Assembly (NCBI GenBank): GCA_050303195.1
Contig: JBNLBG010000006.1
Location: 953 to 64,952, forward strand
Origin: Allomuricauda sp.
GTDB lineage: Bacteria > Bacteroidota > Bacteroidia > Flavobacteriales > Flavobacteriaceae
DNA: 64,000 bases
Direction: 5' to 3'
The translations under genes were made by a program, and so were the position numbers. The notes beneath the pieces were generated by a model that saw nothing but the letters and a program-made list of their open reading frames with translations, was not told the DNA's origin and searched no databases. Below, one piece after another: positions 1-57,743 of this stretch. Every line of letters starts with the position of its first letter. Position 1 is the first letter of the stretch.

Positions 1-480
1 ATGGGACTGACCATTCCATCGTATTCCCAAGTTGTTAAAACTGAAGAGCTTTCAGAAGTAATTGTCTATGCTACCAATTACAAGTATCTCAGCAATGTAA
101 ACTCACAAGAGGTTACATCAATTCCAGTGACTGCACTGGAACGAAAAGTTGCAGCGTATGATATCAAAAACTCCGACATCTACATGGATGAGTATGATTA
201 TTATACAGTGACCTTTTACATCCCTGAGGGAAAAATTTTGGCTGCTTATGATAAAGACGGCAAGATTATTAGAACTGCCGAAAAATTTAAGGACATCAAC
301 CTCCCCGTTACCGTAAAAGAAGCTGTGTTGGAAAGATTCCCTGAATGGACCATTACCAAAGATATTTATTTGGTAACCTACCATGAAGACAAGGGCATCA
401 ACAAAAAGTACAAACTTAAATTGGTCAACGGTGACAAAGTATTACGAGTAAAATTGGATGCTGGAGGTAACTTCCTGTAG
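1..480 (+). CDS. hypothetical exported protein, PepSY-like fold suspected; may continue upstream of the window
   Basis: ORF is open from base 1 to the stop at 478-480. The C-terminal ...KYKLKLVNGDKVLRVKLDAGGNFL resembles PepSY-like modules. No catalytic motif seen. Confidence 0.35.
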   Translation: MGLTIPSYSQVVKTEELSEVIVYATNYKYLSNVNSQEVTSIPVTALERKVAAYDIKNSDIYMDEYDYYTVTFYIPEGKILAAYDKDGKIIRTAEKFKDINLPVTVKEAVLERFPEWTITKDIYLVTYHEDKGINKKYKLKLVNGDKVLRVKLDAGGNFL

Positions 481-515
481 TCTTTACAAAACAATAACCT
501 AAAAGGTTTAAAACA

Positions 516-731
516 ATGTCAGTATTAAAAGTAATTGAAATCCTAGGAAACTCAACGGTGAGTTTTGAGGATGCCGTTCAGAACATTATCACGGAAGCGT
601 CAAAAACCGTGAGAGAAATCAAGTCTGTCTATATCAAGGACATGCAAGTAACTGTGGACAACAATAAAATTTCCCAATATCGTGTAAATGCGAAAGTTTC
701 CTTTGCTATTGCTGATGATATGGACAACTAA
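516..731 (+). CDS. dodecin family flavin-binding protein
   Basis: 71 aa. VIEILGNSTVSFEDAVQNIITEASKTVREIKSVYIKDMQVTV...YRVNAKVSF follows the dodecin pattern in size and beta-alpha-beta-beta layout. Followed by a strong terminator. Confidence 0.7.
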   Translation: MSVLKVIEILGNSTVSFEDAVQNIITEASKTVREIKSVYIKDMQVTVDNNKISQYRVNAKVSFAIADDMDN

Positions 732-738
732 CCATTTT

Positions 739-779
739 GGGCGCATTCTTTTTAGTGTGGAATGCGCCCGGATTTTTTT
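739..779 (+). terminator. Rho-independent terminator after the dodecin gene
   Basis: Perfect 10-bp GC-rich stem gggcgcattc (739-748) / gaatgcgccc (760-769), 11-nt loop, then a T7 run at 773-779. Confidence 0.85.
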
Positions 780-825
780 GCCCTGGGGTTACGTTGAATA
801 GGTCCCAAACCTTAAATCGTACTAT

Positions 826-1458
826 TTAGCTGAAATTCTGGGATTCCTCAAAATATCGTATGGCCTCTTCATCCGTCACTTTATCAAACTCATCATAAAA
901 TTGACCCACTGCCCTAAAATTGTTAGGCACCAAAAGACAAATGACCTCTTCAACATTGGTCGAGTTCTTTAGTTTTTGAATGGCACTTTTGGGAGCAACG
1001 GGAACGGCCACCACTATTTTATGAGGTTGTTGTTTCTTTACCAACTCCACCGATGCCAACAAAGTGTTGCCTGTAGCGATACCATCATCTAGGATGATCA
1101 CTGTTTTGTCTTTAAGGTTTTGAGGTTGTCTACCCTTATGGTATGAATCATGTAGTTCCCTTAACCTTTCCCGGATTCTTTGGGTTTCACGCGCAATATA
1201 GTCCCGTGTTACAGTGACCGCATCGTTTAGTATAATATCTTCAAGGCTTACGGCCCCAATAGCGTATTCTTTCTGAAAGGGATGGCCTATCTTTTTGGTG
1301 AGTACTACATCCAAAGGAGCTTTAAGGGCTTTGGCCACAATGCTCCCTAATGGAAGTCCCCCCCGGGGGATGGCCAATATCACCAAATTTTCTCCTTGAA
1401 AACCCTTCAATACTTCTGAAAGTTGTATGCCCGCATCAATCCTATTTTTAAACATCAT
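826..1458 (-). CDS. phosphoribosyltransferase family protein
   Basis: 210 aa. PRPP-binding motif VIILDDGIATGNT. Last gene of a three-gene minus-strand operon. Confidence 0.8.
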   Translation of the reverse strand: MMFKNRIDAGIQLSEVLKGFQGENLVILAIPRGGLPLGSIVAKALKAPLDVVLTKKIGHPFQKEYAIGAVSLEDIILNDAVTVTRDYIARETQRIRERLRELHDSYHKGRQPQNLKDKTVIILDDGIATGNTLLASVELVKKQQPHKIVVAVPVAPKSAIQKLKNSTNVEEVICLLVPNNFRAVGQFYDEFDKVTDEEAIRYFEESQNFS

Positions 1459-1466
1459 CCAGTTTT

Positions 1467-2114
1467 TTATTCAAGATATTGGGAAAACCATGCTGCTGTT
1501 AGTTCCGCTACTTCTTCAAGCTTGCCAGGTTCTCCAAACAAATGTGTTGCTTTTGGGATTATTTGAAGCTCACATTTGCACTGCAGTTTCTCCATAGCTT
1601 TCCTGTTGAGCTCCAATACCTCTTGGTCCCAACTCCCAACCAACAATAAAGTTGGCGCCAACACTTTATGCAAATAAGGCATGGCCAAATCAGGGCGTCC
1701 ACCACGTGATACCACAGCACCAATCTCTTCACCATAAAAAGCCGCTGCCCGCAATGCGGAAGCACTTCCTGTACTGGCCCCAAAGTAACCGATATGCATT
1801 TCCTTCGTCTCTTTCTGGGATTTTACCCAATGGGTAACATCAATCAAACGAAGTGTGAGAAGGTCAATGTTGAAACGGTTTTCATAAACCCGGTCCTCCT
1901 CTTCCGTTAGTAGATCAAAGAGTAAGGTAGCAAGGCCTTCTCTTTGTAATATCCCGGCCACAAAGTTGTTTCTGGAACTGAACCTACTGCTTCCGCTACC
2001 GTGGGAAAAAATGACAATGCTTGTGGCCCCCTCAGGAATGCAGAGATTACCCTGAAGTGCCAATCCATCCAACCTAATGGTCACTGGAATTTTTTTTGCT
2101 GCCAATGACATCAT
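1467..2114 (-). CDS. dienelactone hydrolase / alpha-beta hydrolase family protein
   Basis: 215 aa. Nucleophile elbow GASTG in YFGASTGSASAL and an HGSG oxyanion region. ATGA start/stop overlap with the upstream gene at 2111-2114. Confidence 0.75.
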   Translation of the reverse strand: MMSLAAKKIPVTIRLDGLALQGNLCIPEGATSIVIFSHGSGSSRFSSRNNFVAGILQREGLATLLFDLLTEEEDRVYENRFNIDLLTLRLIDVTHWVKSQKETKEMHIGYFGASTGSASALRAAAFYGEEIGAVVSRGGRPDLAMPYLHKVLAPTLLLVGSWDQEVLELNRKAMEKLQCKCELQIIPKATHLFGEPGKLEEVAELTAAWFSQYLE

Positions 2115-3295
2115 ACCACAACCGCTTTTGCATTACCTTTTTTCAGTACAAAGAGCAATATAATTCCGCCGTAAGCTACAGCCAATACGATTACGGAAAA
2201 CAAGAGTCCTATAAATGGTACCAGCGTCAATAATCGAAGTATCATTGCAATGGCAAGAGAGAGGAACAAAACACCCCAAAAACCCATTGAGCCCTTGTTT
2301 ACCAAATTCCAATAATGCGAGGCAATGGACGCTGCCACCAAGTGTCCAAAAAAGATGCTGAACAGGTAGAACGACAACAAGAACAAACCTATGGGAATAC
2401 CTATAATGATTACAAAGGTGATACCTATTACCAATGGAAAACCTAAAATATAGATCAGCCCATAACCAAACCCTCTCCAAAAGTCGCCCTCCAAGTTGTC
2501 AGCAGCCCTTTTAAAATATTTTCTGAAGGCCAAGTGCAATAACAACAATACCAAAAATGCGGAAAGCACATAAAAAATCCAGAAGCCCAGTGAAGCAATT
2601 CCAAGGGCTTTCCAAGAAAATTCATTCCGTTCTTTCATAAGGTCTTGGTTAAAATGTGCAGAAGAATTGACCAGTGTATTGCCAAAATCAATTTCACCTG
2701 CTTCCGCCCAGTATTCCACATCTCCAAAGAACTGGGCAGTCTCTCCTATCTTTATTTCATCGGCCACTATCTTGGATTTTCCGTGTATTTGTCCGCTAAT
2801 GCTGATATCTCCTCCGTAGAGTTCCATACCTTGGCCAACCTTTCCATTAAAATCCAAATCACCGCCATAGGCCTTTACCATACCATCTACCTCACCTTCC
2901 ACGGTAATTTTTCCTGAGAAATTCACCAAGTTTCCATGTATCTTGGCATTGTCAGTGACAAACACCTCTCCACCAAAAACAATGACATCATCGGCCACTT
3001 CGTTTGAAATAGTCAATTTTCCAGCCATGGCTCTGACGTCATCTCCAATGGGTCCCATGACCAATACATTACCCCCGGCCACTAACAAATCTTGTTGCAA
3101 GCTATCGCGAACCCTGATTTCACTTCCGGCCACCACGAAATCACCATTGATTTTGGATTCCATGTTAATGATTTCACCTGCTGCGTAAAGGTCGTCCTCC
3201 TGATTTTCAGATATGGTAATGGTTTCATCTGCCTTGAACTGCCCCCATAAAAATAATGGTGCAAAAATTGTCAAAAAGACTAGTTGTGTTCTCAT
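2111..3295 (-). CDS. membrane protein with an N-terminal bactofilin-like (polymer-forming) repeat region and a C-terminal multi-TM domain
   Basis: 394 aa. Signal-like N-terminus. About 200 aa of repeated G-x-V/I-x-G-D/N beta-helix-like units (INGDFVVAGSEIRV, VAGGNVLVMGPIGDDV, FGGEVFVTDNAKIHGNL ...), then 4-5 hydrophobic helices. Confidence 0.6.
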   Translation of the reverse strand: MRTQLVFLTIFAPLFLWGQFKADETITISENQEDDLYAAGEIINMESKINGDFVVAGSEIRVRDSLQQDLLVAGGNVLVMGPIGDDVRAMAGKLTISNEVADDVIVFGGEVFVTDNAKIHGNLVNFSGKITVEGEVDGMVKAYGGDLDFNGKVGQGMELYGGDISISGQIHGKSKIVADEIKIGETAQFFGDVEYWAEAGEIDFGNTLVNSSAHFNQDLMKERNEFSWKALGIASLGFWIFYVLSAFLVLLLLHLAFRKYFKRAADNLEGDFWRGFGYGLIYILGFPLVIGITFVIIIGIPIGLFLLSFYLFSIFFGHLVAASIASHYWNLVNKGSMGFWGVLFLSLAIAMILRLLTLVPFIGLLFSVIVLAVAYGGIILLFVLKKGNAKAVVV

Positions 3296-3347
3296 GAGCT
3301 TTTTTTTAAATGACCTTTAAAGTTCCTGATAATAAGCCACTAACGAA

Positions 3348-3361
3348 ATGACCTGCATCAG
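3348..3361. promoter_or_regulatory. FNR/CRP-type box ATGACCTGCATCAG (TGA-N6-TCA), candidate for the minus-strand operon starting at 3295
   Basis: Centre 3354.5 lies 29.5 nt from the first base of the -7-like octamer GAACTTTA read on the minus strand (3325-3318), 22 nt before the ATG at 3295. This is the weakest -7 match in the set. Confidence 0.4.
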
Positions 3362-3382
3362 TAGAACACTTTAATCATCCAA

Positions 3383-3396
3383 TTGACGATTGTCAT
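3383..3396. promoter_or_regulatory. FNR/CRP-type box TTGACGATTGTCAT upstream of the hemG-like gene
   Basis: TTGA-N6-TCA core. Centre 3389.5 lies 29.5 nt from the -7-like TACATTTA (3419-3426), which is 37 nt before the ATG at 3464. Confidence 0.55.
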
Positions 3397-3463
3397 TTCA
3401 GCAGCAAACAACATCTTTTACATTTACAACGATTCAATGCATTCAATCTAAAATCTTACACCC

Positions 3464-3985
3464 ATGAAAATTTTAATTGTTTATGCCACCGGTGAGGGAC
3501 AGACCCGGAAAATAGCCCGTTTTATGGAAGAGGTCCTTCAAGCTGAGAACCACAGCGTGGTAATTGCCGATGCCACCGAAGAGCCGCCATCACCGGAAAA
3601 TTTTGATGCGGTGCTGGTCGGTAGTTCCATTCATATTCAGAAGTATCACTCCTCCATTAAAGATTATGTCATGCAAAATGTGGATGAACTCAATAAAAAA
3701 CCGTCTGCCTTCTTTTCTGTTTCCATGGCCATAGCATCAGATATTGAGGAAGAACATAAAGAAGTGGAGAAAATAGCGCAGCGCTTTTTGGACCAAACGG
3801 GATGGAAGCCCAAGGAAATCAATCATATCGCCGGAGCGCTCAAGTATACCCAATACGACTATTTTAAAAGGCTTATTATGCGTATGATCGCCAAGAAAGA
3901 AGGGGGCTCCACAGATACTTCAAAAGATCACGAATATACAGATTGGGATGCGGTCCGGTCTTTTGTGCTGGATTTTGCCAAATAA
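3464..3985 (+). CDS. hemG: flavodoxin-domain protein, HemG-like (menaquinone-dependent protoporphyrinogen oxidase type)
   Basis: 173 aa. MKILIVYATGEGQTRKIA flavodoxin N-terminus. IAGALKYTQYDYFKRLIMRMIAKKEGGSTDTSKDHEYTDWDAV parallels the long-loop region of E. coli HemG as I recall it. Confidence 0.6.
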   Translation: MKILIVYATGEGQTRKIARFMEEVLQAENHSVVIADATEEPPSPENFDAVLVGSSIHIQKYHSSIKDYVMQNVDELNKKPSAFFSVSMAIASDIEEEHKEVEKIAQRFLDQTGWKPKEINHIAGALKYTQYDYFKRLIMRMIAKKEGGSTDTSKDHEYTDWDAVRSFVLDFAK

Positions 3986-4056
3986 ACTGGTTTCAATTTT
4001 CTGATTACTTTTAGGGATATTGTTCAATCTTTAAATTGACCTAAATCCACCATTGC

Positions 4057-4710
4057 ATGATAATCCATCGTTTTGATTCTGAAAACTCCATCCTCAATAC
4101 CTTCATGGCAGAAATACGGGATAAAAACATTCAGAAAGATGCCATGAGGTTCCGAAGGAACATTGAACGTATTGGTGAAGTGCTTGCTTATGAATTGAGC
4201 AAAACACTGGATTATAAAGCTGTTATGATCGAAACCCCATTTGGAACAAAGAAAAGCTCGCAAACTATAGATTCCTTGGTACTTTGCTCTGTACTCCGTG
4301 CTGGGTTGCCTTTACACCATGGTATTTTAAATTATTTTGATGGAGCAGAGAATGCATTTATTTCTGCCTACAGGCACCATCCTGATGGTGGAGACGACTT
4401 TGAGGTTATTGTAAAATATTTTGCAGCGCCTTCACTGGAGGGCAAAACCTTGGTTTTAACCGACCCTATGTTGGCAACGGGAAAGACTTTGGAAAATGTA
4501 TTGAAAGCTCTTAGTGGCCACGGCACACCAAAGAAAATCCATATCATTTCAGTAATTGGGTCCAAAGCGGGGGTAGCTCATGTACAAGAAGTTTTTCCAG
4601 GAGAGACCCAACTTTGGATAGCATCGATTGATGAAGAGCTCACCAGCAAGGGCTATATTATTCCAGGTCTTGGTGATGCGGGAGACCTATCCTACGGTGA
4701 AAAATTATAA
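4057..4710 (+). CDS. upp: uracil phosphoribosyltransferase
   Basis: 217 aa. LVLTDPMLATGKT PRPP motif and the C-terminal IIPGLGDAGDLSYG Upp signature. Confidence 0.9.
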   Translation: MIIHRFDSENSILNTFMAEIRDKNIQKDAMRFRRNIERIGEVLAYELSKTLDYKAVMIETPFGTKKSSQTIDSLVLCSVLRAGLPLHHGILNYFDGAENAFISAYRHHPDGGDDFEVIVKYFAAPSLEGKTLVLTDPMLATGKTLENVLKALSGHGTPKKIHIISVIGSKAGVAHVQEVFPGETQLWIASIDEELTSKGYIIPGLGDAGDLSYGEKL

Positions 4711-6075
4711 CAGGATTTCTACCACTTCATGAAGCACAGGAATATGGCAACGCCAACCATACGTTTCATGTATCTTGTCTTTGAAGGCATGTAAGGCATC
4801 ATTTTCCCCGTGGATCAAATAAACTTTTTCTGGAATGTTTTTAATAGAACCCATCCAATGCAGCAGTTCGCTTTGGTCTGCATGCGCGGATAGACTTTCC
4901 AAGTGTTCCACTTTTGCCTTCACGGGAATGAATTTTCCAAACATTTTCAATTCTTGGGCGCCTTCCAACAGTTTCCGCCCCCGGGTTTCTTCCGCTTGAT
5001 ACCCCACAAGCAAAACGGTAGTGGATTTTACATCCATTAATTGTTTTAAATAGGTTAACACCCTACCCCCTGTAACCATACCGCTCCCTGCGATCACAAT
5101 TTTGGGTCGTGGGTCATCAATGGTTTCCCAAGTTTCCCGATACGAACTTACTAAGTTTACATGGTTGCACATGTTGTGATATTCACTCATGGAAAGCTTG
5201 TGCCATTCTGGAAAGCTTCCAAATACCTCCAAAACATTGGTGCCCATGGGACTATCCACAAAAATGGGAATGTTGGGAATCTTGTTTTTGTCATACAGTT
5301 TCCAGAGCAAATACATTAAGGATTGTAAACGTTCCACCGCAAAAGAGGGAATAATCAAGGTGCTACGATTCTGCAGCGTTCGTTCAGCCAAATTTTTAAA
5401 AATGGCCTCCAAATCTTCTACAGGATGGTCTTTATCCCCGTATGTGCTCTCCACAAAAAGATAATCTGCCCATTCCGGTCGCAGAGGTGCATCCAACAAG
5501 TCATCTTTCAATCGGCCCACATCTCCAGAAAAGACAAGTACTTTCCCATGAATATTCAGTTCAATAAAAGTAGACCCGATAATGTGCCCATTGCGCTTAA
5601 AACATGCATTGTAATTTGGAGCTAGTTCAATGTTCTCCCCTTCTTCAATACTCTTAAAATACTTCAGGGTTCGTTTTACATCTTCTTGATCATAGAGTGG
5701 CAAAGCTGGGTCATGACTACTGTATCCCTCTTTGTTGGCCCTTTCGGCCTCTTCCTCATGTATTTTGGCACTGTCCTGCAATATAATTTCAGCAATGGCC
5801 AAGGTAGGGGCCGTTCCAAGAATATCCCCCACAAAACCCTGTTTTACCAAAAGAGGGAGGTACCCACAATGGTCCAAGTGTCCATGGGTCAACAACACTA
5901 GGTCTAGTTTGGAGACATCGATGGGAAGAGGCAGCCAATTTTGTTGTCGAAGCTCCTTACTTCCTTGGAACACACCACAATCCACCAATATATTGACATC
6001 TTCAGTCTGCAGATAAAATTTAGAACCGGTCACGGTGCCAGATCCTCCCAAAAAATGGACTTTTAGCTTTTTCAT
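4705..6075 (-). CDS. MBL-fold metallo-hydrolase, beta-CASP family (RNA/DNA-metabolising nuclease type)
   Basis: 456 aa. HGHLDHCG (HxHxDH) motif, a beta-CASP insert and the C-terminal SAHADQSELLHW motif. Its 3' end overlaps the convergent upp by 6 nt. Confidence 0.85.
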   Translation of the reverse strand: MKKLKVHFLGGSGTVTGSKFYLQTEDVNILVDCGVFQGSKELRQQNWLPLPIDVSKLDLVLLTHGHLDHCGYLPLLVKQGFVGDILGTAPTLAIAEIILQDSAKIHEEEAERANKEGYSSHDPALPLYDQEDVKRTLKYFKSIEEGENIELAPNYNACFKRNGHIIGSTFIELNIHGKVLVFSGDVGRLKDDLLDAPLRPEWADYLFVESTYGDKDHPVEDLEAIFKNLAERTLQNRSTLIIPSFAVERLQSLMYLLWKLYDKNKIPNIPIFVDSPMGTNVLEVFGSFPEWHKLSMSEYHNMCNHVNLVSSYRETWETIDDPRPKIVIAGSGMVTGGRVLTYLKQLMDVKSTTVLLVGYQAEETRGRKLLEGAQELKMFGKFIPVKAKVEHLESLSAHADQSELLHWMGSIKNIPEKVYLIHGENDALHAFKDKIHETYGWRCHIPVLHEVVEILL

Positions 6076-6084
6076 AGAGCGCGT

Positions 6085-6927
6085 TTAACCACTGCACAGT
6101 GATTTCATTTCTTTAATGATTCTTTCCTTTCTTCCATTGGAAACGCCCAAATGATCCAAATAGAATACTTCTTCCCGCAATTGCCGACAGAGTACCACAT
6201 TTCTATCCAAAAGAAATTGCTTTTCCCTGTTGGTGAGCAGGGTGGAAACGGTTATTGGATAGAGCCCCAAACAATCAATCCGGTCCTTCAGTCCATCGCC
6301 CATAGGATAATCCCAACTCAAGAGATACAATCCCACACATTTTCCGTATTGCAAGGCGTCTGCCGTAAAGCGTGTATTTGTTACCACCCAACCCAATGTA
6401 TCTTCGAAATCCTTATTCTTTTGGGCTTGAAGAAATCCTTTTACATCATTATATCGGGAGTTGATGTACAAGGGCACCTTTACATTGCAATTAAGGCCTC
6501 CCTCCCCATGGAACTTGCATTCGATGATGTTAAGGGTTCCATTTTTTATGGCCAGTACGTCGATTTCATGGGAAACACAATCACCCTGAAGCTCTTCACC
6601 AACCTTGGTCCGGTATCCGGAATAATGCAAAATTCCTGCAAGAAAACGTTCAAATGGAAATCCTGTGGGGCCCAACTCGTAAATGGCCTTTTTTAGTTTG
6701 TATTTTGAAGCATAGACCGATTTGGCCTTTTTTAATAAAGCAAATGCCCGATTGTAGATTTCCCCGGTTGTAATCTCTGGGTAAAGCTCGTCCATGACCT
6801 GATCCACAATTTTATTGACCACAGAATGAGTGGCTCCACTGGATTTTAGGGAGTTTCGTAACTTGTCAACAGAAAATTTGGTCTTTTCTCCCGTAGATTT
6901 TATAATATCGAATTCCTTCTCTTTCAT
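6085..6927 (-). CDS. ATP-cone domain fused to a PD-(D/E)xK (Mrr-like restriction endonuclease fold) domain
   Basis: 280 aa. The N-terminal about 90 aa (IIKSTGEKTKFSVDKLRNSLKSSG...IYNRAFALLKK) is ATP-cone-like. The core HEIDVLAIKNGTLNIIECKF supplies D...ExK. Ends 9 nt upstream of the beta-CASP gene. Confidence 0.7.
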   Translation of the reverse strand: MKEKEFDIIKSTGEKTKFSVDKLRNSLKSSGATHSVVNKIVDQVMDELYPEITTGEIYNRAFALLKKAKSVYASKYKLKKAIYELGPTGFPFERFLAGILHYSGYRTKVGEELQGDCVSHEIDVLAIKNGTLNIIECKFHGEGGLNCNVKVPLYINSRYNDVKGFLQAQKNKDFEDTLGWVVTNTRFTADALQYGKCVGLYLLSWDYPMGDGLKDRIDCLGLYPITVSTLLTNREKQFLLDRNVVLCRQLREEVFYLDHLGVSNGRKERIIKEMKSLCSG

Positions 6928-6986
6928 CTCTCTAAAATAGTATCAATTACAGTATGGCTCAAATTAAGGAAGTGATTTACAATTGG

Positions 6987-7967
6987 CTAATCCTTATTCT
7001 CCTTACTTGCCGCTTTTTCTTGTTTTCTAAAATACCTCCGGGTCAAAAAATTATGTTTTAGGGCTTCCATATTTTCATTAAAACGTGCCGTTCCTTCCTC
7101 TATGTTTTGCATGGTTCGTTCCAATTGGTTTACCAGAACAGTATCTGTCGCCAAGTAGTTTATGGTTCCTTTTCCTTTGGAAATCGTTGTGGAAAGACTA
7201 TCGAGCGTATGGGAAATTGACACCATTTTTTTGCTCGAAGCTTCCAAGTTTTCCAAAACACTTTTCATCTGCTGACCAGAAATAGAGTCGTTTAGCAGTA
7301 CATCGGCCACACTGTTTTCAAAATTAATGTCCGTTATGATGCCATTGAGCTTTTCAAGTGTGACATTTGCTTCCATGCTCATCTTTTTAAGATTGACAGA
7401 AGTTTGCAAAAGGTTATTAGACATTACCGTATCATTGAGCAATCTTCCCAAGGTGCCCTTGTTGTGTTTTAATTTCTCGGTTATTTCCAACAGGTCGGCT
7501 GTTAAAAGTGCAGCATTCTCATTAGTGACGTTCAAGGTGCTCAACATATCTTCCGCTCCTATCTTGCTGTAGGAAACAATTTGGTCTCCTGATGCAATGG
7601 GTGCGCCTGCTCCTTGCCCAGGTACAATGTTTACGATCATACTACCTACCAAACCATCTGAGCCGATACTGGCTATGGCATTCTTTCGGATATGTTGCAG
7701 CATTTTCTCTTGAATGACCATGGTAACCACAATGGTGGTGTCGTTGAACATTTCAATGGTGTTTACTGTACCAATATCAATACCGGAATACCGAACATTA
7801 TTGCCTTTCTGGAGACCATTCACATTTTTAAAAACCGCATTTATGGTAAAGGTGTTTCCAAACAGATTTTGTCTATTTCCTATAAAATAGGCCGCAAGAA
7901 CCAGCAAAATAGTCCCCAGTGTAACAAAAACCCCTAGTTTTATTTTTTCTGTTGTTGTTTTATCCAT
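6987..7967 (-). CDS. MlaD/MCE family protein (substrate-binding component of the Mla-like ABC system)
   Basis: I chose the ATG at 7967 (MDKTTTEKIKLGVFV... with a TM anchor), 4 nt after the upstream stop. The longer track ORF reaching 8054 would overlap the ATPase by 83 nt. MCE-domain-like GNNVRYSGIDIGTV. Confidence 0.8.
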   Translation of the reverse strand: MDKTTTEKIKLGVFVTLGTILLVLAAYFIGNRQNLFGNTFTINAVFKNVNGLQKGNNVRYSGIDIGTVNTIEMFNDTTIVVTMVIQEKMLQHIRKNAIASIGSDGLVGSMIVNIVPGQGAGAPIASGDQIVSYSKIGAEDMLSTLNVTNENAALLTADLLEITEKLKHNKGTLGRLLNDTVMSNNLLQTSVNLKKMSMEANVTLEKLNGIITDINFENSVADVLLNDSISGQQMKSVLENLEASSKKMVSISHTLDSLSTTISKGKGTINYLATDTVLVNQLERTMQNIEEGTARFNENMEALKHNFLTRRYFRKQEKAASKENKD

Positions 7968-7971
7968 CTCT

Positions 7972-8757
7972 TTATTTTTTAAAGAATGCCTGTACTTTTG
8001 GGTCATTGGAATTGGTAAGATCCTGAAAAGAGCCCTCAGCATAATTGATACCATCCACTAGAAGTATCATACGTTCCGAAATTACCCGGGCACAGTCCAC
8101 ATCGTGTGTAATGATCAATGAAGAGGTTCCATATTCCTTTTGGATGTTGCGCATCAGTTCTATGATTTCCTTTGAGGTGATAGGATCCAGCCCGCTTGTG
8201 GGTTCATCATACAAAATGATTTTTGGTCGCAATATGATGGCCCGTGCCAAGGCCACCCTTCTTTTCATACCGCCTGAAAGCTCTTCTGGCATCAAATCCA
8301 TGGTATGCTCCAAGCCAACACTTTTTAGCGCTTCCAAAACAAAAGGAGTGGTGTCGGTAACCACACCTATTTTCTTTTGGTGCCTTCTCATGGGGAATTC
8401 CAAGTTTTCCCTTACGGTCATGGAATCGTAAAGGGCACTTCCTTGGAACAAAAAACCAATATCCGCTCGTAGAATATCAAGTGCTTCTTGGTGGAGTTCA
8501 CTGATATCCTGTCCCATAACAATGATTTTACCAGCATCCGGTTGTTCCAAACCTACCAGACATTTTATCATGACAGATTTACCCGAACCTGATTTGCCCA
8601 TGACTACCAAATTTTCTCCTTCATACAGCCTCATGTTGAAGCCATTGAGCACGTGGTTATCCCCGAAACTTTTATGCAATCCCTCTATATGGATCATCTC
8701 CTTAAGGGTCTGTCCCGACGTGGATTTCATTGGTATTTCCTTTTCGCTTGACATCAT
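7972..8757 (-). CDS. ABC transporter ATP-binding protein (MlaF-like)
   Basis: Walker A GKSGSGKS, signature LSGGMKRRVALAR, Walker B ILYDEP. ATGA overlap with the permease gene. Confidence 0.9.
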   Translation of the reverse strand: MMSSEKEIPMKSTSGQTLKEMIHIEGLHKSFGDNHVLNGFNMRLYEGENLVVMGKSGSGKSVMIKCLVGLEQPDAGKIIVMGQDISELHQEALDILRADIGFLFQGSALYDSMTVRENLEFPMRRHQKKIGVVTDTTPFVLEALKSVGLEHTMDLMPEELSGGMKRRVALARAIILRPKIILYDEPTSGLDPITSKEIIELMRNIQKEYGTSSLIITHDVDCARVISERMILLVDGINYAEGSFQDLTNSNDPKVQAFFKK

Positions 8758-9533
8758 AGTTCATAAAAAATATCCGATATAAACACAGCTACAAAATCAA
8801 TCACAAACAATAGCATTGAGGTAAATACCACTGCGGTATTTGCGGCCATACCCACCCCAGCAGTCCCTTTTTTGCTGTAATACCCTTTGTAACATCCCAC
8901 AAGACCAATGGCAAAACCAAAAAAGAACGATTTTATGGTAGCGGGAATCAAATCACCATAGGTAAGGGCATTGAATACGGTATTAAAATACAGTTGAAAG
9001 GAAACATTACCCTTAAAATTCTCTACAAGTGCCGAGCCATACAGTGCTACGGCATCGCCCAAAATAACAAGAAGGGGCAACATTAGTGTGGTGGCCATAA
9101 TGCGTGTAACGACCAAAAATTTAAAGGGATTGGTCCCTGAGACCTCCATGGCATCAATCTGTTCCGTTACCCGCATTGACCCCAGTTCTGCTCCAATGCC
9201 CGATGCAATACGCCCAGCACAGACCAAGGCGGTTATCACGGGTCCAAGTTCCCGTACGATGGAAATGCCCACCATATTTGGCATCCAAGAAACGGCTCCA
9301 AACTCTATAAGTGTGGGTCGGGATTGTAAGGTGAGCACTAAACCAATAATAAATCCCGTGACCAAGACCAAGACCAAGGAGCGGTTTCCCATATTATAGC
9401 ACTGCCGCAAAAATTCCTTGAACTCAAAAGGTGGTCTAAAGCCTACTTTAAAAAAACGGCCAGCAAAATAAGATAGCTCCCCAATCTCAATGAAGAATTT
9501 TCGTATTTGTGAAATAGCCTGTGACACACGCAT
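8754..9533 (-). CDS. MlaE family ABC transporter permease
   Basis: 259 aa, multi-TM. RELGPVITALVCAGRIASGIGAELGSMRVTEQIDA is typical of MlaE/Ttg2B permeases. Confidence 0.85.
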   Translation of the reverse strand: MRVSQAISQIRKFFIEIGELSYFAGRFFKVGFRPPFEFKEFLRQCYNMGNRSLVLVLVTGFIIGLVLTLQSRPTLIEFGAVSWMPNMVGISIVRELGPVITALVCAGRIASGIGAELGSMRVTEQIDAMEVSGTNPFKFLVVTRIMATTLMLPLLVILGDAVALYGSALVENFKGNVSFQLYFNTVFNALTYGDLIPATIKSFFFGFAIGLVGCYKGYYSKKGTAGVGMAANTAVVFTSMLLFVIDFVAVFISDIFYEL

Positions 9534-9591
9534 GATTTTACCATTTGAAGGTAGCTATTTTCAAAAATATAACTTGAGATAGGTTATGGGA

Positions 9592-9605
9592 ATGATCGAA
9601 ATCAT
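9592..9605. promoter_or_regulatory. FNR-type box ATGATCGAAATCAT serving the minus-strand mlaE operon
   Basis: TGAT-N4-ATCA. Centre 9598.5 lies 29.5 nt from a perfect -7 element TATTTTTG read on the minus strand (9569-9562), 28 nt before the ATG at 9533. Confidence 0.6.
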
Positions 9606-9609
9606 ACTA

Positions 9610-9623
9610 CTGATCAATATCAT
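9610..9623. promoter_or_regulatory. FNR-type box CTGATCAATATCAT serving the plus-strand 128-aa ORF
   Basis: TGAT-N4-ATCA. Centre 9616.5 lies 29.5 nt from TAACTTTA (9646-9653), 23 nt before the ATG at 9677. Confidence 0.6.
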
Positions 9624-9676
9624 TTTGACAAAAAAGGGTAAAAACTAACTTTAAGAATCCTATAAAAACAAGTAAA

Positions 9677-10063
9677 ATGGAAACAAAAGCTATGTATAAC
9701 TCAGATTTGCACTTTGAACACCAGCAATGGGAAAAGGAGCTTGAATTTTGGGAAGATGAGCTTAGATCTTTTCAAAATAGGCTTGATGAGTTGGTAAACC
9801 GTTGGACAGATGAAAAGGTGTTGGCGGAATTAAGTGAGTTCCAAAACCAGTTTTTCATTCACAAATCCAAGATTGAGGAATTCAAGGAAAAGATCCACGA
9901 GCATGAACTCAATATCTCCAAACATTTGGAAGCCCAAGAGAACGTCATTAATCGATTGCATTTTGAGCACCATAAAAAAATTAGGGAGGGTATTGAAACA
10001 GAAAGAGGCATTTACCATGATTTGAAGAAGAAATTCTTCCGCTTCCTTTCCAAATACATGTAA
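9677..10063 (+). CDS. hypothetical all-helical, His/Glu-rich protein (two HFEH motifs); a metal-binding helical bundle is possible
   Basis: 128 aa. LHFEHQQWEKELEFW near the N-terminus and RLHFEHHKKIREGIE near the C-terminus, plus IHEHE. No family recognised with certainty. Confidence 0.5.
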   Translation: METKAMYNSDLHFEHQQWEKELEFWEDELRSFQNRLDELVNRWTDEKVLAELSEFQNQFFIHKSKIEEFKEKIHEHELNISKHLEAQENVINRLHFEHHKKIREGIETERGIYHDLKKKFFRFLSKYM

Positions 10064-12710: not shown

Positions 12711-13304
12711 AACTTCTATAAGTTAAGATTAATTACTATTTTTTCCTACACACAAACTTGGAGCACGCAATCTTGACCTTCGAAGTACATCAACCTTCTA
12801 ATTACCTTAACGGTTCTGCCCATAAAAAAGCCCCAATAAATTGGGACTTTTCTCTTAAATTTTCTTTTGTCCACTGTTCTAGTCATATTTTTTTGTATTT
12901 CAAATTTCAAAATCCGTTCTGGATTTACCTTAAACTACTAAATCCATTCCTCAACGCTTGACGGAAAAAATGCTGAGATTGACGTTGATGATAAAATCCA
13001 TCCAACTTTAATCATCCAATGCGTTAGTTCATTTAAAAGCATATCTAGAAATAGGATAATCTGTACCCTGTTCTACTTGATTTTTCAACCTATTGATAAA
13101 CCAAATATTAACTGGAACGTTGGTGTATGTTAGAAACATAACACGAATACATAAAGTAAGGTATTGACATATTTCAATCTAAAAATTCAATAAAATGACA
13201 ATACTGAAAGGTCAAATATGAGATATTCTAATTGTAAAGGTGATTATGCATCATATTTTACATGATATGCTTCATTTCTTTTAGTGCCCACAGAACACCA
13301 CCAA

Positions 13305-41336: not shown

Positions 41337-42026
41337 CTACACCAGCTTGTATTTGTTCGCTTTTTTGGAGAGATCGATAAGATTTTTCACTTTCATTTTC
41401 TTCATTAGATTGAAGCGATGGGTCTCAATGGTGCGTTTGCTGTTCTGTAATTTTTCAGAAATCTCCTTATTGGTATAGCCCGCCAACACCAGTTCCAGCA
41501 CTTGAAGTTCTTTGTTGGTCAGATCAAAGGGATTGTTTTTGTCTTCTTTAGAAGAAGACTTACCATTGATGCTTTTTTCTGGATTGAACAAGTTGTTCAC
41601 CAGAACATTGGATATATCCCCACTAAAATATTTTCCACCTTCCTGTACCATGTGTATGGCCTTGACAAATTCAGTCTTGCCCGTATCTTTTAACAGATAA
41701 CCGCTGGCCCCAGCCTGTACAGATTTTAGAATGTATTCTTCTGAATCGTGCATGGAAAGGATGATGCACTTGGTCTTTCTGTTGCCCACAGAGTTTAAAC
41801 GCTCCACGGTTTCAATACCGCCCAATTCGGGCATACGGATATCAATAATTAAGATATCAGGGGATTTATCATCCACCATCTTCAGGGCCTCCAAACCGTT
41901 GGAAACCTCGCCGATGACATCCAAGTCCGGTTCTTCTTCAAGTAATGCACGTATGCCATCCCGAACCAAAGAATGGTCATCGGCCAATACAATGCTAATG
42001 GTGTGTTGAAGTCCAGATTCTTGCAT
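41337..42026 (-). CDS. NarL/LuxR-family response regulator
   Basis: 229 aa. Receiver (LADDHSLVRDGI..., DILIIDIRMPELGG) and a C-terminal LuxR HTH (LTNKELQVLELVLAGYTNKEISEKLQNSKRTIETHRFNLMKKM). Confidence 0.9.
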   Translation of the reverse strand: MQESGLQHTISIVLADDHSLVRDGIRALLEEEPDLDVIGEVSNGLEALKMVDDKSPDILIIDIRMPELGGIETVERLNSVGNRKTKCIILSMHDSEEYILKSVQAGASGYLLKDTGKTEFVKAIHMVQEGGKYFSGDISNVLVNNLFNPEKSINGKSSSKEDKNNPFDLTNKELQVLELVLAGYTNKEISEKLQNSKRTIETHRFNLMKKMKVKNLIDLSKKANKYKLV

Positions 42027-47669: not shown

Positions 47670-47683
47670 AATATTAAGCTTTC

Positions 47684-47697
47684 TACGTATTAGTACT
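47684..47697. promoter_or_regulatory. TACGTA core with flanking arm (TACGTAtTAGTACT) just upstream of nrtA
   Basis: Core at 47684-47689, 14 nt from the nrtA ATG (47669). The arm TAGTACT parallels TAATACT in the narK and nirB sites. Confidence 0.45.
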
Positions 47698-47881
47698 TAT
47701 TTATAGCAAATGTATACTGAGTAATGGAACTATTTTATGGGAAAGCCCATGGCTGCATATCTTTTTAATACATGAACTGTTATGTTACAAACCATGGAAA
47801 AACCTGTCAAAAAACATATTATTCTTTTAACTGACTGATTTATATTTAGATATGTATGGTTGAGGTTTACTGAGTCTGAGG

Positions 47882-47892
47882 TACGTAGTACT
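47882..47892. promoter_or_regulatory. TACGTA core (TACGTAGTACT) in the distal part of the nrtA upstream region
   Basis: Core at 47882-47887. The same TACGTAGTAC decamer occurs upstream of nasA (41255-41264). Flanked by TACTGAG repeats. Confidence 0.4.
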
Positions 47893-48073
47893 GAGAAGCT
47901 CTTCCAGTGCCACACTTATCCATTACAGGCACTAAAATTTGAGCTCATTAAGAATAATGGGGCGAATAAAAATCATTGCCTTAACCGTCCAGAAAGGTTC
48001 GGAATATTCTAATTGATAATGTAGTTGTTGGGAAAAAGTTATTGCCGAAAAGAGGTGACTTTGATATACTATA

Positions 48074-48838
48074 CTATCCGGCCAAATAGAAATTGTGCTC
48101 CAAGATTTCCCTTTTCAAGTAGTCTACATCAACAATGCCTATTCGCTTGCCTTTTGTATTGATAAGGTTTTCTCTTTTAAGTGCGGAAAACGTCCTGATG
48201 ACCTGTTCTTCGGTTGTTCCGGCATAATCGGCATAATCCCTTCGACTCAGGGGTACATCAAGAAAGCCATTGGATTGCCCAAATTTTCGGTTGATGTACA
48301 ATAAAGTATCAATGACCCGCTCCCTAACGGTCATTTGGGAGAGTGACTTTACCTTTGCTTCGCTTTTGTTGAGTTCGTTGGCATAAAAAAGCATTAGATC
48401 ATAGGCAAATGACGCGTCGCTCTTCAGCACTTCTTGGAGCAGGTCCTTTGAAAAGTAGCAAAGGGTTGAATCTTCAAGGGCGATTGCCCCAATGGGGTAG
48501 AATTCTTCGGTGCCAAAACCACGATGGCCAATGATTTCCCCTGCTTTGGCAAAGCGAACAATTTGTTCCCTTCCGTTGATACCAGTTCTAAAAACTTTCA
48601 CCTTGCCTTTTAGGATAAAGAACAATCCGTTTACCGGGGCCCCTTCAATAATGAACTGTTGCCCTTTTTTACACCGGATATCATTTTTACGTTCCATAAA
48701 CTTCGCAACAACGGGGGAGCCAATGTTTTTTTTCAACAAACAATATTCATTATTGCAACGGCTGCACGAGGTGTCTGACATGGATGGTTTTCCATGTCTC
48801 TCCTTGATTTTGGGTCCGTATGCCTCGTAAAATTGCAT
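48074..48838 (-). CDS. Crp/Fnr family transcriptional regulator with an FNR-type cysteine pattern
   Basis: N-terminal C-x2-C-x4-C (CSRCNNEYC) plus a Cys in ALEDSTLCYF, the position equivalent to E. coli FNR Cys122 (ALETSMVCEI). cNMP-like beta-roll. The C-terminal HTH contains EEQVIR. Alternative start at 48781. Confidence 0.75.
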   Translation of the reverse strand: MQFYEAYGPKIKERHGKPSMSDTSCSRCNNEYCLLKKNIGSPVVAKFMERKNDIRCKKGQQFIIEGAPVNGLFFILKGKVKVFRTGINGREQIVRFAKAGEIIGHRGFGTEEFYPIGAIALEDSTLCYFSKDLLQEVLKSDASFAYDLMLFYANELNKSEAKVKSLSQMTVRERVIDTLLYINRKFGQSNGFLDVPLSRRDYADYAGTTEEQVIRTFSALKRENLINTKGKRIGIVDVDYLKREILEHNFYLAG

Positions 48839-50267: not shown

Positions 50268-50296
50268 GATACTTAGCTTTGTTTGAAACAAAAATA

Positions 50297-50321
50297 AGTA
50301 TTAATACGTATTTTTACGTAC
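50297..50321. promoter_or_regulatory. AGTATTA arm plus tandem TACGTA cores upstream of narK
   Basis: AGTATTAaTACGTAtttttACGTAC. Cores at 50305-50310 and 50315-50320, 10 bp apart. The proximal core lies 8 nt from a perfect -7 element TATTTTTG read on the minus strand (50296-50289), 21 nt before the ATG at 50267. Confidence 0.55.
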
Positions 50322-50454
50322 TTTCTAAAGCCAAACTATAGATTGACGCCGATTTTTATGAAGTTCATAATCTAAGGGAAGAAAATAATGGAAATGAAAA
50401 AAATATTCCTTTTTTTATTCGGAATTGAGAAATTAAAATAGGTTGATTGTCTAT

Positions 50455-51219: not shown

Positions 51220-51271
51220 ATCGCGGTATTTTGATTTTCAATAAAAATTTTTATGAATCTGACAACAAAAA

Positions 51272-51277
51272 TACGTA
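51272..51277. promoter_or_regulatory. TACGTA core overlapping a minus-strand -7 element for cobA
   Basis: The minus strand reads TACGTATTTTTG. TATTTTTG (51273-51266) is a perfect TAnnTTTG, 46 nt before the cobA ATG (51219). Confidence 0.45.
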
Positions 51278-51294
51278 ATTATTTTTAAATAATC

Positions 51295-51326
51295 AGTATT
51301 AAATTACGTAATAATACTTAGTTTTG
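51295..51326 (+). promoter_or_regulatory. nirB promoter block: AGTATTAaatTACGTAaTAATACT followed by the -7 element TAGTTTTG
   Basis: Core at 51305-51310, 8-nt spacer, -7 element at 51319-51326, ATG at 51351. 20 of 22 nt are identical to the narK promoter block. Confidence 0.55.
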
Positions 51327-54897: not shown

Positions 54898-56733
54898 ATG
54901 AAAAAGAGCAATCAGCAGCAAGCATTGGATGTCTCAACATTTTTGAGAATCCGTAAATGGTATCTATTAGCCCTTTCTGCCATTGCCCTTACGGTTATCA
55001 TTGCCCAAATTCTGATACAACAGCACCTTAATTCCCAATTGAGCGATTCCCGTGTGATTAATGTGGCGGGTCGTCAACGCGCCTATAGCCAAAAATTGGT
55101 CAAGGAGGCTTTGCTGCTCAACCAAGAAAATCTTGGAGACAGCGAACAACAAGAACTCTTAGATAAGCTGAAAAACACACTTTATGTCTGGAAGACATCC
55201 CATGAAGGGCTCCAAAAGGGAAATGACAGCATTGGACTTCCCAAGGAGGAAAATGAAGCCATACTTCAACATTTTAAGGAGCTTTCCATACACCATAATG
55301 CCATGGTCAATGCCGTGGAGTCCATGCTATCGGAACAAGACTCATTGAAAAATCAAGCTCAATTGAACATTTTACTGGCCAACGAAGCCCCTTTTCTTGA
55401 GAAAATGGATGCCATTGTAAACGAGTATGATACCATCAGCAAGGAAAAACTACAGAATTTGAAGGTGAAGGAATATTTGCTGTTGGTCTTTTCACTATTG
55501 ATTTTAATCTTGGAAGTGCTCTTTATTTTTAGACCGCTTTCCATACAAATCAGGGAAACCATTCGGGATTTGGTGAAAAGTAAATTACGGTCAGATCAAG
55601 ATGCCAAGGAAATCAAGAAAATATTTGAAGAGAAGGAAAAATCCCTTCAAGAGTTGAAGGAGTTAAACTTTGTGATTGACAATGCTGCACTTTTTGCCAG
55701 TGCCCGTAGCGATGGTTCCGTTGTTTTTATCAGTAAAAAGTTCATGACGCTCCTGGAAGAAACCAAAATCCCACCAAATGTGCACTTATCTGAGATTTTG
55801 ACAGTGGATGAGGGGCAACGACAATACCTACATGAGGTTTTGACCAAGCCTCGCAAAAGCATCCGAACCGAGGAAATTGAGATAAATACCAAAGCTGGGA
55901 AAAAACTTTGGTTAGACATGTCCATTATCCCCATGCACCCCTCGAGTTTAAAACAAAGCGTTTTATTGTTGTGTTCGGACATCACCGAACGCATGAACAA
56001 TCAGAAAAAAGTGGAACAGCTCACACTTCAGAATTACGAAGACCGGATGCGTCAAAAACAATTGCAGGCCAGCCTTATTGTTGAAGGTCAGGAAGAAGAA
56101 CGAAAGCGAATTGCCAAGGACATTCACGATGGTATTGGACAAATGCTTACGGCATTGCGGTTCAACATTGAATCCATCAACCTAAAAAACAAGGAAAAGA
56201 CCAAGGAAAAAATTGATTACCTAAAAAGTCTCACCTCAGACCTCATCAAAGGGGTACGCACCGCAACTTTTAACCTAACCCCACCTGAACTGGGTGATCA
56301 CGGAATCTTTCCCGCTTTGCAAAAAATGACCTCTGAATTGAGCAAATTGACCGGAAAAAACATTTTATTTGAAAATAAGGCCGAGGAGAACATCCGTTTT
56401 GACTCGCTGGCCGAGACCAATATTTATAGAGTTACCCAAGAAGCGGTGAACAATGCCATAAAATACGCTGATGCCAATTATATTTTGGTGACCATTAACC
56501 ATACCGGGGATCTGTTGAGTGTGGTCATTGATGATGACGGAAAGGGGTTTGACCCATCCATTCTGGAAAAACCACCTAAAAATAGCAGCGATGGTGGAAT
56601 GGGTGTGTTTTTTATGAGGGAACGCATCAGTTATATTAATGGTAGGCTTTTCATCAATTCAACTCTAGGAGAAGGAACCCGGGTCACCATAAATTACCAT
56701 CTTGGTGAAACCCTGCAAGAAGTAGAACAATAA
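54898..56733 (+). CDS. NarX/NarQ-like sensor histidine kinase (PilJ/P-box-type periplasmic domain, PAS, HisKA_3, HATPase)
   Basis: 611 aa. [15 protein letters not shown] is a P-box-like motif after TM1. A second TM follows, then a PAS-like region, [22 protein letters not shown] (HisKA_3) and an N/G-box HATPase. Confidence 0.85.
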
Positions 56734-57195: not shown

Positions 57196-57627
57196 CTACA
57201 ATGGAAAAAATTCCTCAATATCCTGTTTTCCTTCGATCAAATCCAAAATGGTTGTGCTTTCAAGCACGTTGATAAACTTGGATTTATTGGAACCTACAAG
57301 TTTGTGAAGTACACAAGGATGGTTCATATCACAATCCTTAATGCCCATGACACATGAGTTGACGCGTTTCTCCCCATCAATGACCTTAACAATATCCATT
57401 AATGTTCGTTGTCGATCATTTTCACTTAAATAGAACCCTCCCCGCGGCCCTCTAATAGACGAAATAATACCATGTCGGGATAATTCTTGCAGTAATTTGG
57501 CCAAATAAGCTTCGGGAACATGCACTACCTCAAATATATCCCTGACCATGATTTTATGGTTCCTGTCGGAGTTCAATGCTAAATAGAGCACCCCTTTAAT
57601 GGCATATTTGGATGAATTGGAAAGCAT
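57196..57627 (-). CDS. Rrf2 family transcriptional regulator with a three-Cys cluster motif (NsrR/IscR-like)
   Basis: I chose the ATG at 57627 (MLSNSSKYAIKGVLYLA...). A winged HTH, then C-x6-C-x5-C (CVMGIKDCDMNHPC). Confidence 0.8.
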   Translation of the reverse strand: MLSNSSKYAIKGVLYLALNSDRNHKIMVRDIFEVVHVPEAYLAKLLQELSRHGIISSIRGPRGGFYLSENDRQRTLMDIVKVIDGEKRVNSCVMGIKDCDMNHPCVLHKLVGSNKSKFINVLESTTILDLIEGKQDIEEFFPL

Positions 57628-57673
57628 GATAGTTTTATCACAACAAAGATTAAAAGACATTTTTATCCTTTTT

Positions 57674-57687
57674 ATGATTTATATCAT
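57674..57687. promoter_or_regulatory. FNR-type box ATGATTTATATCAT upstream of the cytochrome c-fasciclin-nosZ operon
   Basis: TGAT-N4-ATCA. Centre 57680.5 lies 29.5 nt from a perfect -7 element TACTTTTG (57710-57717), 26 nt before the ATG at 57744. On the other side AATCTTTG (57651-57644, minus strand) sits at the same 29.5-nt distance towards the Rrf2 gene. Confidence 0.6.
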
Positions 57688-57743
57688 GTTATAGGTTTGG
57701 GCCGCTACATACTTTTGGGGCATAATTTTTAACCAATTATGTC

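Follow-up and report, generated by a model that had tools for sequence, protein, structure and literature searches.

The 143-bp spacer described here lies near 9.6 kb in a 64,000-nucleotide (nt) stretch of the genome of Allomuricauda sp. (contig JBNLBG010000006.1; the whole stretch is called the window below). It separates mlaE from a divergently oriented open reading frame (ORF) of 128 amino acids (aa), and it carries two back-to-back palindromic boxes that resemble sites of CRP/FNR-family transcription regulators, each paired with a promoter -7 element. The features of the spacer and its borders are as follows.

6987-9533, minus strand: mlaE-mlaF-mlaD (mlaEFD) operon (Pfam MlaE, ABC_tran, and MlaD), predicted target of the left box
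Between mlaE (8754-9533, minus strand) and the 128-aa ORF (9677-10063, plus strand): the spacer, 143 bp
9569-9562, minus strand: -7 element of mlaEFD, TATTTTTG, 23 nt from the left core and 28 nt upstream of the mlaE ATG
9592-9605, minus strand: left box, ATGATCGAAATCAT, with its TGA-N6-TCA core at 9593-9604, assigned to the mlaE promoter
9610-9623, plus strand: right box, CTGATCAATATCAT, core at 9611-9622, assigned to the promoter of the 128-aa ORF
9624-9627, plus strand: TTTG at the position expected of a -33 element, abutting the 3' side of the right box
9646-9653, plus strand: -7 element of the 128-aa ORF, TAACTTTA, 23 nt from the right core, with the ATG (9677) 23 nt farther on

The original prediction placed the box centers at 9598.5 and 9616.5, each 29.5 nt from the first T of its own -7 element, and these coordinates and distances were reproduced. 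It also reported the same box at the same distance twice near 3.3 kb and once at 57.7 kb, and those sites are present as well.

3348-3361, minus strand: box CTGATGCAGGTCAT (minus-strand reading), core 3349-3360, upstream of a 394-aa ORF (2111-3295)
3325-3318, minus strand: degenerate -7-like octamer GAACTTTA, paired with the 3348-3361 box, the weakest of the five sites
3383-3396, plus strand: box TTGACGATTGTCAT, core 3384-3395, upstream of a Flavodoxin_5 gene (3464-3985)
3419-3426, plus strand: -7 element TACATTTA, paired with box TTGACGATTGTCAT
57674-57687: single palindromic box ATGATTTATATCAT, core 57675-57686, with a -7 element on either side
57710-57717, plus strand: -7 element TACTTTTG, facing a cytochrome c-fasciclin-nosZ-nosL-nosD cluster
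57651-57644, minus strand: -7-like AATCTTTG, facing an Rrf2 gene, 29.5 nt from the box that it shares with the nos operon

Both 9.6-kb boxes and the three further sites contain the 5-4-5 inverted repeat of the CRP/FNR type (TGA-N6-TCA core); the full Escherichia coli FNR consensus, TTGAT-N4-ATCAA, does not occur within the window. The predicted targets in the window are mlaEFD, the 128-aa ORF, the 394-aa ORF, the nos cluster, and the Flavodoxin_5 gene; HemG, the oxygen-independent protoporphyrinogen oxidase, belongs to the Flavodoxin_5 family.

The boxes taken by themselves are not exceptional. TGAT-N4-ATCA occurs 3 times in the window against 1.92 expected, i.e., at chance, with all three occurrences intergenic and at box sites, and the bare TGA-N6-TCA core, which had been expected some tens of times in 64 kb, was counted 26 times. 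The argument therefore cannot rest on TGAT-N4-ATCA; only the composite of core and -7 element is significant. The composite TGA-N6-TCA-N23-TAnnTT was found 4 times against 0.37 expected (0 of 100 shuffles reached 4), and each match is intergenic and directed at a gene start.

The same composite was scored in 80 related loci encoding the 128-aa ORF, drawn from many genera and totaling 862 kb; the closest, from Allomuricauda sp. CAU 1633, shares 89% identity in this ORF. In loci where the ORF is preceded by a region of its own, that region holds TGAY-N4-RTCA and then, exactly 23 nt on, TAnnTTT(G/A), while the intervening 23 nt are unconserved. When TAnnTTTG was required, the 23-nt spacer gave 93 matches, and no other spacer between 5 and 45 nt gave more than 3. 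When TAnnTT was required, 238 fell at 23 nt, 7 at 22 nt, and 22 at 24 nt (control spacers: mean, 10.5; maximum, 22). The original prediction had rested its case on identical phasing and would have fallen had this spacing not been enriched; the scan, run on the related loci, bears it out: the 23-nt spacing is strongly enriched, and both boxes and phasing are kept in orthologous spacers across many genera. Phasing to the core promoter is strict regardless of the sequence between, the 23-nt spacer having near-zero information content. At least one composite site occurs in 75 of the 80 loci (median, 3), an ORF start follows within 200 nt at 219 of 242 sites, and the median distance from -7 element to ORF start is 30 to 45 nt for most of the larger families of downstream genes. 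The 128-aa ORF is preceded by an identically placed box in 29 loci, and a box equivalent to the left one faces mlaE in 18 orthologous loci in which MlaE is the divergent partner.

These counts bear directly on whether the boxes are chance palindromes or parts of a repeated mobile element. The chance frequency of bare TGAT-N4-ATCA in the window would suit the former; however, the enrichment of the composite is about tenfold in the window, exceeds twentyfold in the related loci, and is confined to one spacing. Spacer and flanks are unconserved, so the sites are not a repeat element. For practical purposes, the spacing counts refute both possibilities.

A matrix built from 239 distinct sites reads (A/C)TGA(T/C)nTAn(A/G)TCATTTT, followed by a spacer that is uninformative until the -7 element is reached. 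TGA is preceded by A or C in 216 of the 239 sites, and TCA is followed by T in 221. The four bases after the box are T-rich, and this T-run ends 19 nt before the -7 octamer. Given a Bacteroidetes -33/-7 consensus of TTTG/TAnnTTTG (PMC2483708), the end of the T-run coincides with the expected position of the -33 TTTG. In Flavobacterium psychrophilum, the mapped start sites place TAnnTTTG at -12 to -5 (PMC9723704), which would center the box at -41.5 with its proximal half-site abutting the -33 element. The proposal that the boxes sit near -41.5, the class II position, thus agrees with the F. psychrophilum start sites, a conversion carried over from another species.

The same geometry can be asked whether the boxes are operators of a repressor instead of activator sites. 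The sign of regulation is a prediction, and a dimer bound at a fixed position could in principle occlude the -33 element. However, repressor sites usually overlap the core promoter at varying positions, whereas single-nucleotide phasing abutting the -33 element at ∼240 promoters is what polymerase-contacting activators need. Single boxes lying 29.5 nt from two divergent promoters also fit bidirectional activation. We therefore regard repressor operators as improbable. Across the loci and the window, 55 divergent site pairs were found, with center-to-center distances of 18 to 74 nt and each box keeping its own 23-nt spacing. Such variable pair distances, combined with fixed individual spacing, suggest that the two 9.6-kb boxes are independent, promoter-specific sites and not a cooperative tandem. 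One palindrome with a -7 element at 29.5 nt on both sides was seen in 16 cases, and the 57.7-kb box is of this type.

The 57.7-kb box lies upstream of genes for a cytochrome c, a fasciclin-domain protein, NosZ, NosL, and NosD. Regulation of nos genes with clade II nosZ has been described as poorly understood outside Proteobacteria (PMC6264515). In a separate set of 80 metagenome loci whose NosZ is 77 to 96% identical to that of the window, 66 have at least 1.5 kb of upstream sequence, and 65 of these 66 carry the composite box at the head of the nos operon, ∼1,200 or ∼620 nt before nosZ. In the window, an Rrf2 gene lies divergently next to the nos operon, and one adjoins the operon in 42 of the 80 loci, so the nos box might be the operator of this NsrR-like regulator, unrelated to the 9.6-kb boxes. 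Nevertheless, its core, flanks, and 23-nt spacing match those of ∼240 sites that have no Rrf2 gene nearby, and we consider an Rrf2 operator very improbable. Neither the FNR-like nor the hybrid regulator gene introduced below was found within 4 kb of nosZ in the metagenome loci. A division of the boxes into nos-type and stress-type sub-motifs, which would have hinted at two regulators, was tried and abandoned, as the boxes are not cleanly separable. The longest frame of the window's Rrf2 gene (57196-57660) starts at 57660; the Pfam match and an MLS..SKYA N terminus point to the Met at 57627. This second Met is probably the true start, which would leave room for the minus-strand -7-like AATCTTTG.

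To describe the content of the regulon, the first ORF downstream of each site was clustered and representatives were checked against Pfam. The families found downstream of a box are given here with their counts.

128-aa ORF: 29 loci
CMD/AhpD-like: 21 loci
MlaE: 18 loci
Tandem Usp: 16 loci
∼150-aa paralogue of the 128-aa ORF: 12 loci
WG-repeat protein: 10 loci
FtsH: 10 loci
Hsp20: 8 loci
Oleate-hydratase-like (assigned by eye without a Pfam check): 5 loci
DUF6544: 5 loci
Patatin-like (by eye): 4 loci
BON: 4 loci
Dps: 3 loci
DUF1269: 3 loci
DUF2267: 3 sites in 2 loci
PEP synthase, zinc alcohol dehydrogenase, and dodecin: smaller groups, assigned by eye from sequence

Most sites precede genes for Usp, Hsp20, FtsH, CMD, Dps, BON, and MlaE or genes without known function. 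Targets or island neighbors of anaerobic type are the nos operon, the Flavodoxin_5 gene, a molybdopterin-oxidoreductase/NrfD operon, Pta-AckA, and alcohol dehydrogenase. Judged by these gene families, the predicted regulon is a stress-survival or dormancy-like set more than a classical anaerobic-respiration regulon.

The most frequent target, the 128-aa ORF, has no Pfam match but is conserved in Flavobacteriaceae (114 database matches). Residues H12, E14, H15, E21, E28, E38, H76, E77, and H99 are invariant, and these His and Glu residues may form a metal or cofactor site. Its AlphaFold model is a confidently predicted three-helix bundle (predicted local distance difference test score, 90.7), for which the search of the PDB gave no fold match better than E = 0.2. 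A hemerythrin-like identity was considered for this protein and is unsupported.

Which protein reads the boxes was approached through the CRP-family genes of the loci. Such genes occur in 4 of the 80 ORF loci, and in three of those four the gene encodes a hybrid regulator of 356 aa, made up of a receiver domain, a cNMP-binding domain, and HTH_Crp with the recognition helix E-T-A-I-R, and located downstream of a large histidine kinase. Among its best database matches, the hybrid is 61 to 88% identical (Flagellimonas, Maribacter, Saonia, Sediminicola, and Ulvibacterium). In the kinase (830 to 1,200 aa), a true LOV domain, which has the NCRFLQ cysteine and matches solved LOV domains at E = 7e-34, is accompanied by several PAS domains and, in some loci, a GAF domain; in some genomes, a gene for an MscS-like channel lies ahead of the kinase gene. 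The kinase-hybrid operons occupy the following positions in their loci.

L072: 7839-12197
L075: 9069-12073+
L084: 6823-11071
L085: 6585-11071
L086: 7513-11071
L087: 5254-11071
L088: 5434-11071

The five further hybrid-regulator loci, L084 to L088, come from related genomes and carry 5 to 11 composite sites per 21 kb, and in all five a phased box precedes the (mscS)-kinase-regulator operon itself. Neighbors in the hybrid loci include Hsp20, patatin, CMD, Usp, BON, FtsH, P-type ATPase, and PfkB, together with ribonucleotide reductase, ribosome hibernation factor, Pta-AckA, and PEP synthase. The first part of the window (1-10063) encodes a dodecin, phosphoribosyltransferases, UPRTase, the Flavodoxin_5 protein, a beta-CASP RNase, an ATP-cone protein, and MlaEFD; from its gene content, it looks like the edge of a stress island such as surrounds the hybrid regulator elsewhere, and it is truncated where the contig stops, ∼950 nt past window position 1. 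A further palindrome with a TGA-N6-TCA core, TTGAAATATGTCAA (13165-13176), lies upstream of a 1,003-aa ORF at 13358. Its -7-like octamer is at 24-nt and not 23-nt spacing, and it is probably outside the regulon for this reason.

The original prediction had pointed to a different protein as reader of the boxes, which is encoded in the window.

48074-48838, minus strand: FNR-like regulator gene (Pfam cNMP_binding and HTH_Crp_2), candidate reader of the boxes

If this protein were a [4Fe-4S] oxygen sensor acting as sole or main activator under micro-oxic or anoxic conditions, several features would be accounted for. Five cysteines (C25-x2-C28-x4-C33, C56, and C127) are kept in 20 orthologues, and C127 aligns with FNR Cys122, the central cluster-ligand cysteine (alignment to 5cvr/5e44-type chains), making the protein a credible FNR type with a predicted [4Fe-4S]-type cluster. 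It is 67 to 86% identical across the genera aligned, and the best 120 database matches are at least 69% identical. Its invariant recognition helix, E-Q-V-I-R, keeps the Glu and Arg of E-T-I-S-R in FNR and has Ile in place of Ser, so that it departs from the E-x-x-S-R pattern. In FNR this serine (Ser212) contacts the outer T of TTGAT, and its loss fits the changed flank of the boxes. Targets compatible with low oxygen also favor the FNR-like protein, namely, the nos operon, the Flavodoxin_5 gene, and, in Polaribacter, an NrfD operon adjoining the regulator gene.

The genomic setting of the FNR-like gene argues the other way. It lies inside an assimilatory nitrate/nitrite cluster (nrtABCD-like, MFS, cobA, and nirBD) in the window, Zobellia, and Polaribacter, an unusual home for a protein resembling an oxygen sensor. 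No box was found upstream of the gene or its operon in four loci (the window, two near-identical Zobellia loci, and Polaribacter), where a TACGTA-type repeat is present instead; the two Zobellia loci (16.7 kb) lack a composite site altogether, as does the nitrate cluster of the window. The regulon consists chiefly of stress genes, and the hybrid has the co-localization and the operon-upstream box that the FNR-like gene lacks. Thus, the protein is a credible FNR type but only a candidate for the role that the original prediction gave it. As sole or main activator, we consider it unlikely, albeit the most serious competitor. Oxygen is likewise only a candidate signal: the nos operon, the Flavodoxin_5 gene, and the Polaribacter molybdopterin-oxidoreductase/NrfD operon point to low oxygen, but the regulon is mostly one of stress or dormancy genes, and with the predicted LOV/PAS/GAF kinase the input could be light, redox state, or a gas.

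Two observations were made around the FNR-like gene. In Polaribacter sp. Hel1_85 (L083, 3521-5830), a phased box precedes the molybdopterin oxidoreductase/4Fe-4S/NrfD operon that adjoins the FNR-like gene; this operon is polysulfide- or thiosulfate-reductase-like and is accompanied by genes for rhodanese and sulfur transport. Between the genes of the nitrate cluster, there are direct repeats of TACGTA/TAAGTA ∼10 bp apart (e.g., TACGTAAAAATACGTATTAATACTTA), located as follows.

Window: 47670-48073, 50292-50454, and 51220-51323
L081: 5405-5529, 6303-6570, and 8756-9008
L083: 7838-8000 and 8753-9038

These repeats lie upstream of nrtA, upstream of the MFS-FNR-like operon, and in the cobA/nirB spacer, and they are kept in Zobellia and Polaribacter. 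Frequently, the last repeat extends into the start of a -7 element (TACGTAGTTTTG). We tentatively assign the repeat to the cluster's NarL-type response regulator (41337-42026; kinase, 54898-56733); alternatively, it could be the site of the FNR-like protein.

Co-localization and the operon-upstream box favor the hybrid over the FNR-like protein, and we accordingly rank the hybrid response regulator with its LOV/PAS/GAF kinase first as the candidate reader and the FNR-like protein second, possibly as a co-reader. The base-contacting Glu and Arg are common to both (E-x-x-I-R), so both could read one box, much as FNR, FixK, and Dnr share a box in Proteobacteria.

Taken together, these data make it likely that the boxes are sites of a CRP/FNR-family activator at the class II position, belonging to a large regulon conserved across Flavobacteriaceae, with the hybrid as the first-ranked regulator. 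At the level of cis architecture and conservation, the class II CRP/FNR-type reading is strongly supported. Each box would be bound by a dimeric activator of this family, centered 29.5 nt upstream of the first T of the sigma-A -7 element and hence at about -41.5; with its proximal half-site abutting the -33 element, the bound activator would contact RNA polymerase directly. The back-to-back placement would follow from the divergent orientation of mlaEFD and the 128-aa ORF, each promoter requiring a phased site of its own. The regulon would comprise universal stress proteins, Hsp20, FtsH, CMD/AhpD-like proteins, Dps, BON, MlaE, and the 128-aa ORF with its paralogue, to which the present genome would add the Flavodoxin_5 gene and the clade II nos operon.

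Several points weigh against this interpretation. The flanks of the boxes, A or C before TGA and T after TCA, are opposite to those of the E. coli FNR consensus TTGAT-N4-ATCAA. Two of the -7 elements in the window, the right-hand TAACTTTA and the 3.3-kb minus-strand GAACTTTA, depart from TAnnTTTG. The 80 loci were picked through the 128-aa ORF, so the site density in them overstates that of the genome, and the composite site is absent from 5 of the 80. The hybrid regulator is known from related genomes and is not encoded in the window, whose contig ends ∼950 nt past position 1; it is linked to the boxes by co-localization only and could be a mere member of the regulon. Finally, sequence, spacing, conservation, and regulon content are observed directly, whereas the -41.5 position, the sign of regulation (activation), and the regulator's identity are inferred.

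The class II CRP/FNR mechanism is known. As at E. coli class II FNR and CRP promoters, and those of FixK, Dnr, and Anr, we see a TGA-N6-TCA core, a center placed by our conversion at -41.5, a box that abuts the upstream promoter element, and the helix Glu and Arg in the candidate regulators; the nos operon is also a target of FixK2, FnrP, and Dnr in Proteobacteria. What differs is the promoter (-33/-7, TTTG/TAnnTTTG, versus -35/-10), the flanks ((A/C)TGA...TCAT versus TTGA...TCAA in E. coli FNR, matching the Ile in place of FNR Ser212), and the content of the regulon, which is dominated by stress genes. A further difference is probably the regulator, since the best-linked candidate is a receiver-CRP hybrid, predicted to be controlled by phosphorylation, and not an iron-sulfur sensor.

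In gene content, the regulon resembles the DosR (DevR) dormancy regulon of Mycobacterium tuberculosis: each has several universal stress proteins and Hsp20, along with PfkB, ribonucleotide reductase, a P-type cation ATPase, and a ribosome hibernation factor. A partner kinase with a GAF domain and a box ahead of the two-component operon are further shared features. The likeness is functional and not one of ancestry: DosR is of the NarL/LuxR type with another DNA motif, whereas here the output domain is of the CRP type and the kinase has a LOV domain. LovK/PhyR/EcfG of Alphaproteobacteria and YtvA/SigB of Bacillus similarly place a LOV photo- or redox sensor upstream of a multistress regulon containing Dps and BON; however, they act through alternative sigma factors and partner switching, whereas an activator on sigma-A promoters would be at work here. 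An FNR-family box also lies upstream of Usp genes under Anr control in Pseudomonas aeruginosa and of stress-island genes at the low-oxygen-activated (lxa) locus of Burkholderia cenocepacia, on which survival in the absence of oxygen depends; these cases differ in phylum and promoter type and involve no receiver-CRP hybrid. In a literature search that covered subscription journals thinly, we found no published description of such a motif, regulon, or regulator family in Flavobacteriia, no characterized member of the receiver-CRP hybrid type, and nothing relevant on LOV kinases in flavobacteria, in keeping with the original prediction that an FNR-type regulon of this geometry had not been described in Flavobacteriia.

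Very little is known of global transcription control in Flavobacteriia. Here, a 12-bp core and one fixed spacing predict the promoters of a regulon across many genera from sequence alone, and the class II CRP/FNR geometry appears to apply without change at the -33/-7 promoters that set Bacteroidetes apart. Genes without known function, such as the 128-aa ORF, its paralogue, DUF6544, and DUF2267, acquire a shared regulatory context, and the N2O reductase operon of abundant marine heterotrophs is placed in the same predicted regulon. It is conceivable, although we would not yet bet on it, that the system is an undescribed master of stress and dormancy, in which a box-preceded LOV/PAS/GAF kinase would phosphorylate the receiver-CRP hybrid and the hybrid would activate many sigma-A promoters, including that of the clade II nos operon, from a rigid site at -41.5, with the FNR-like paralogue reading the same box as a second input. 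If so, N2O consumption in marine Flavobacteriaceae would be coupled to a signal of light, redox state, or oxygen.

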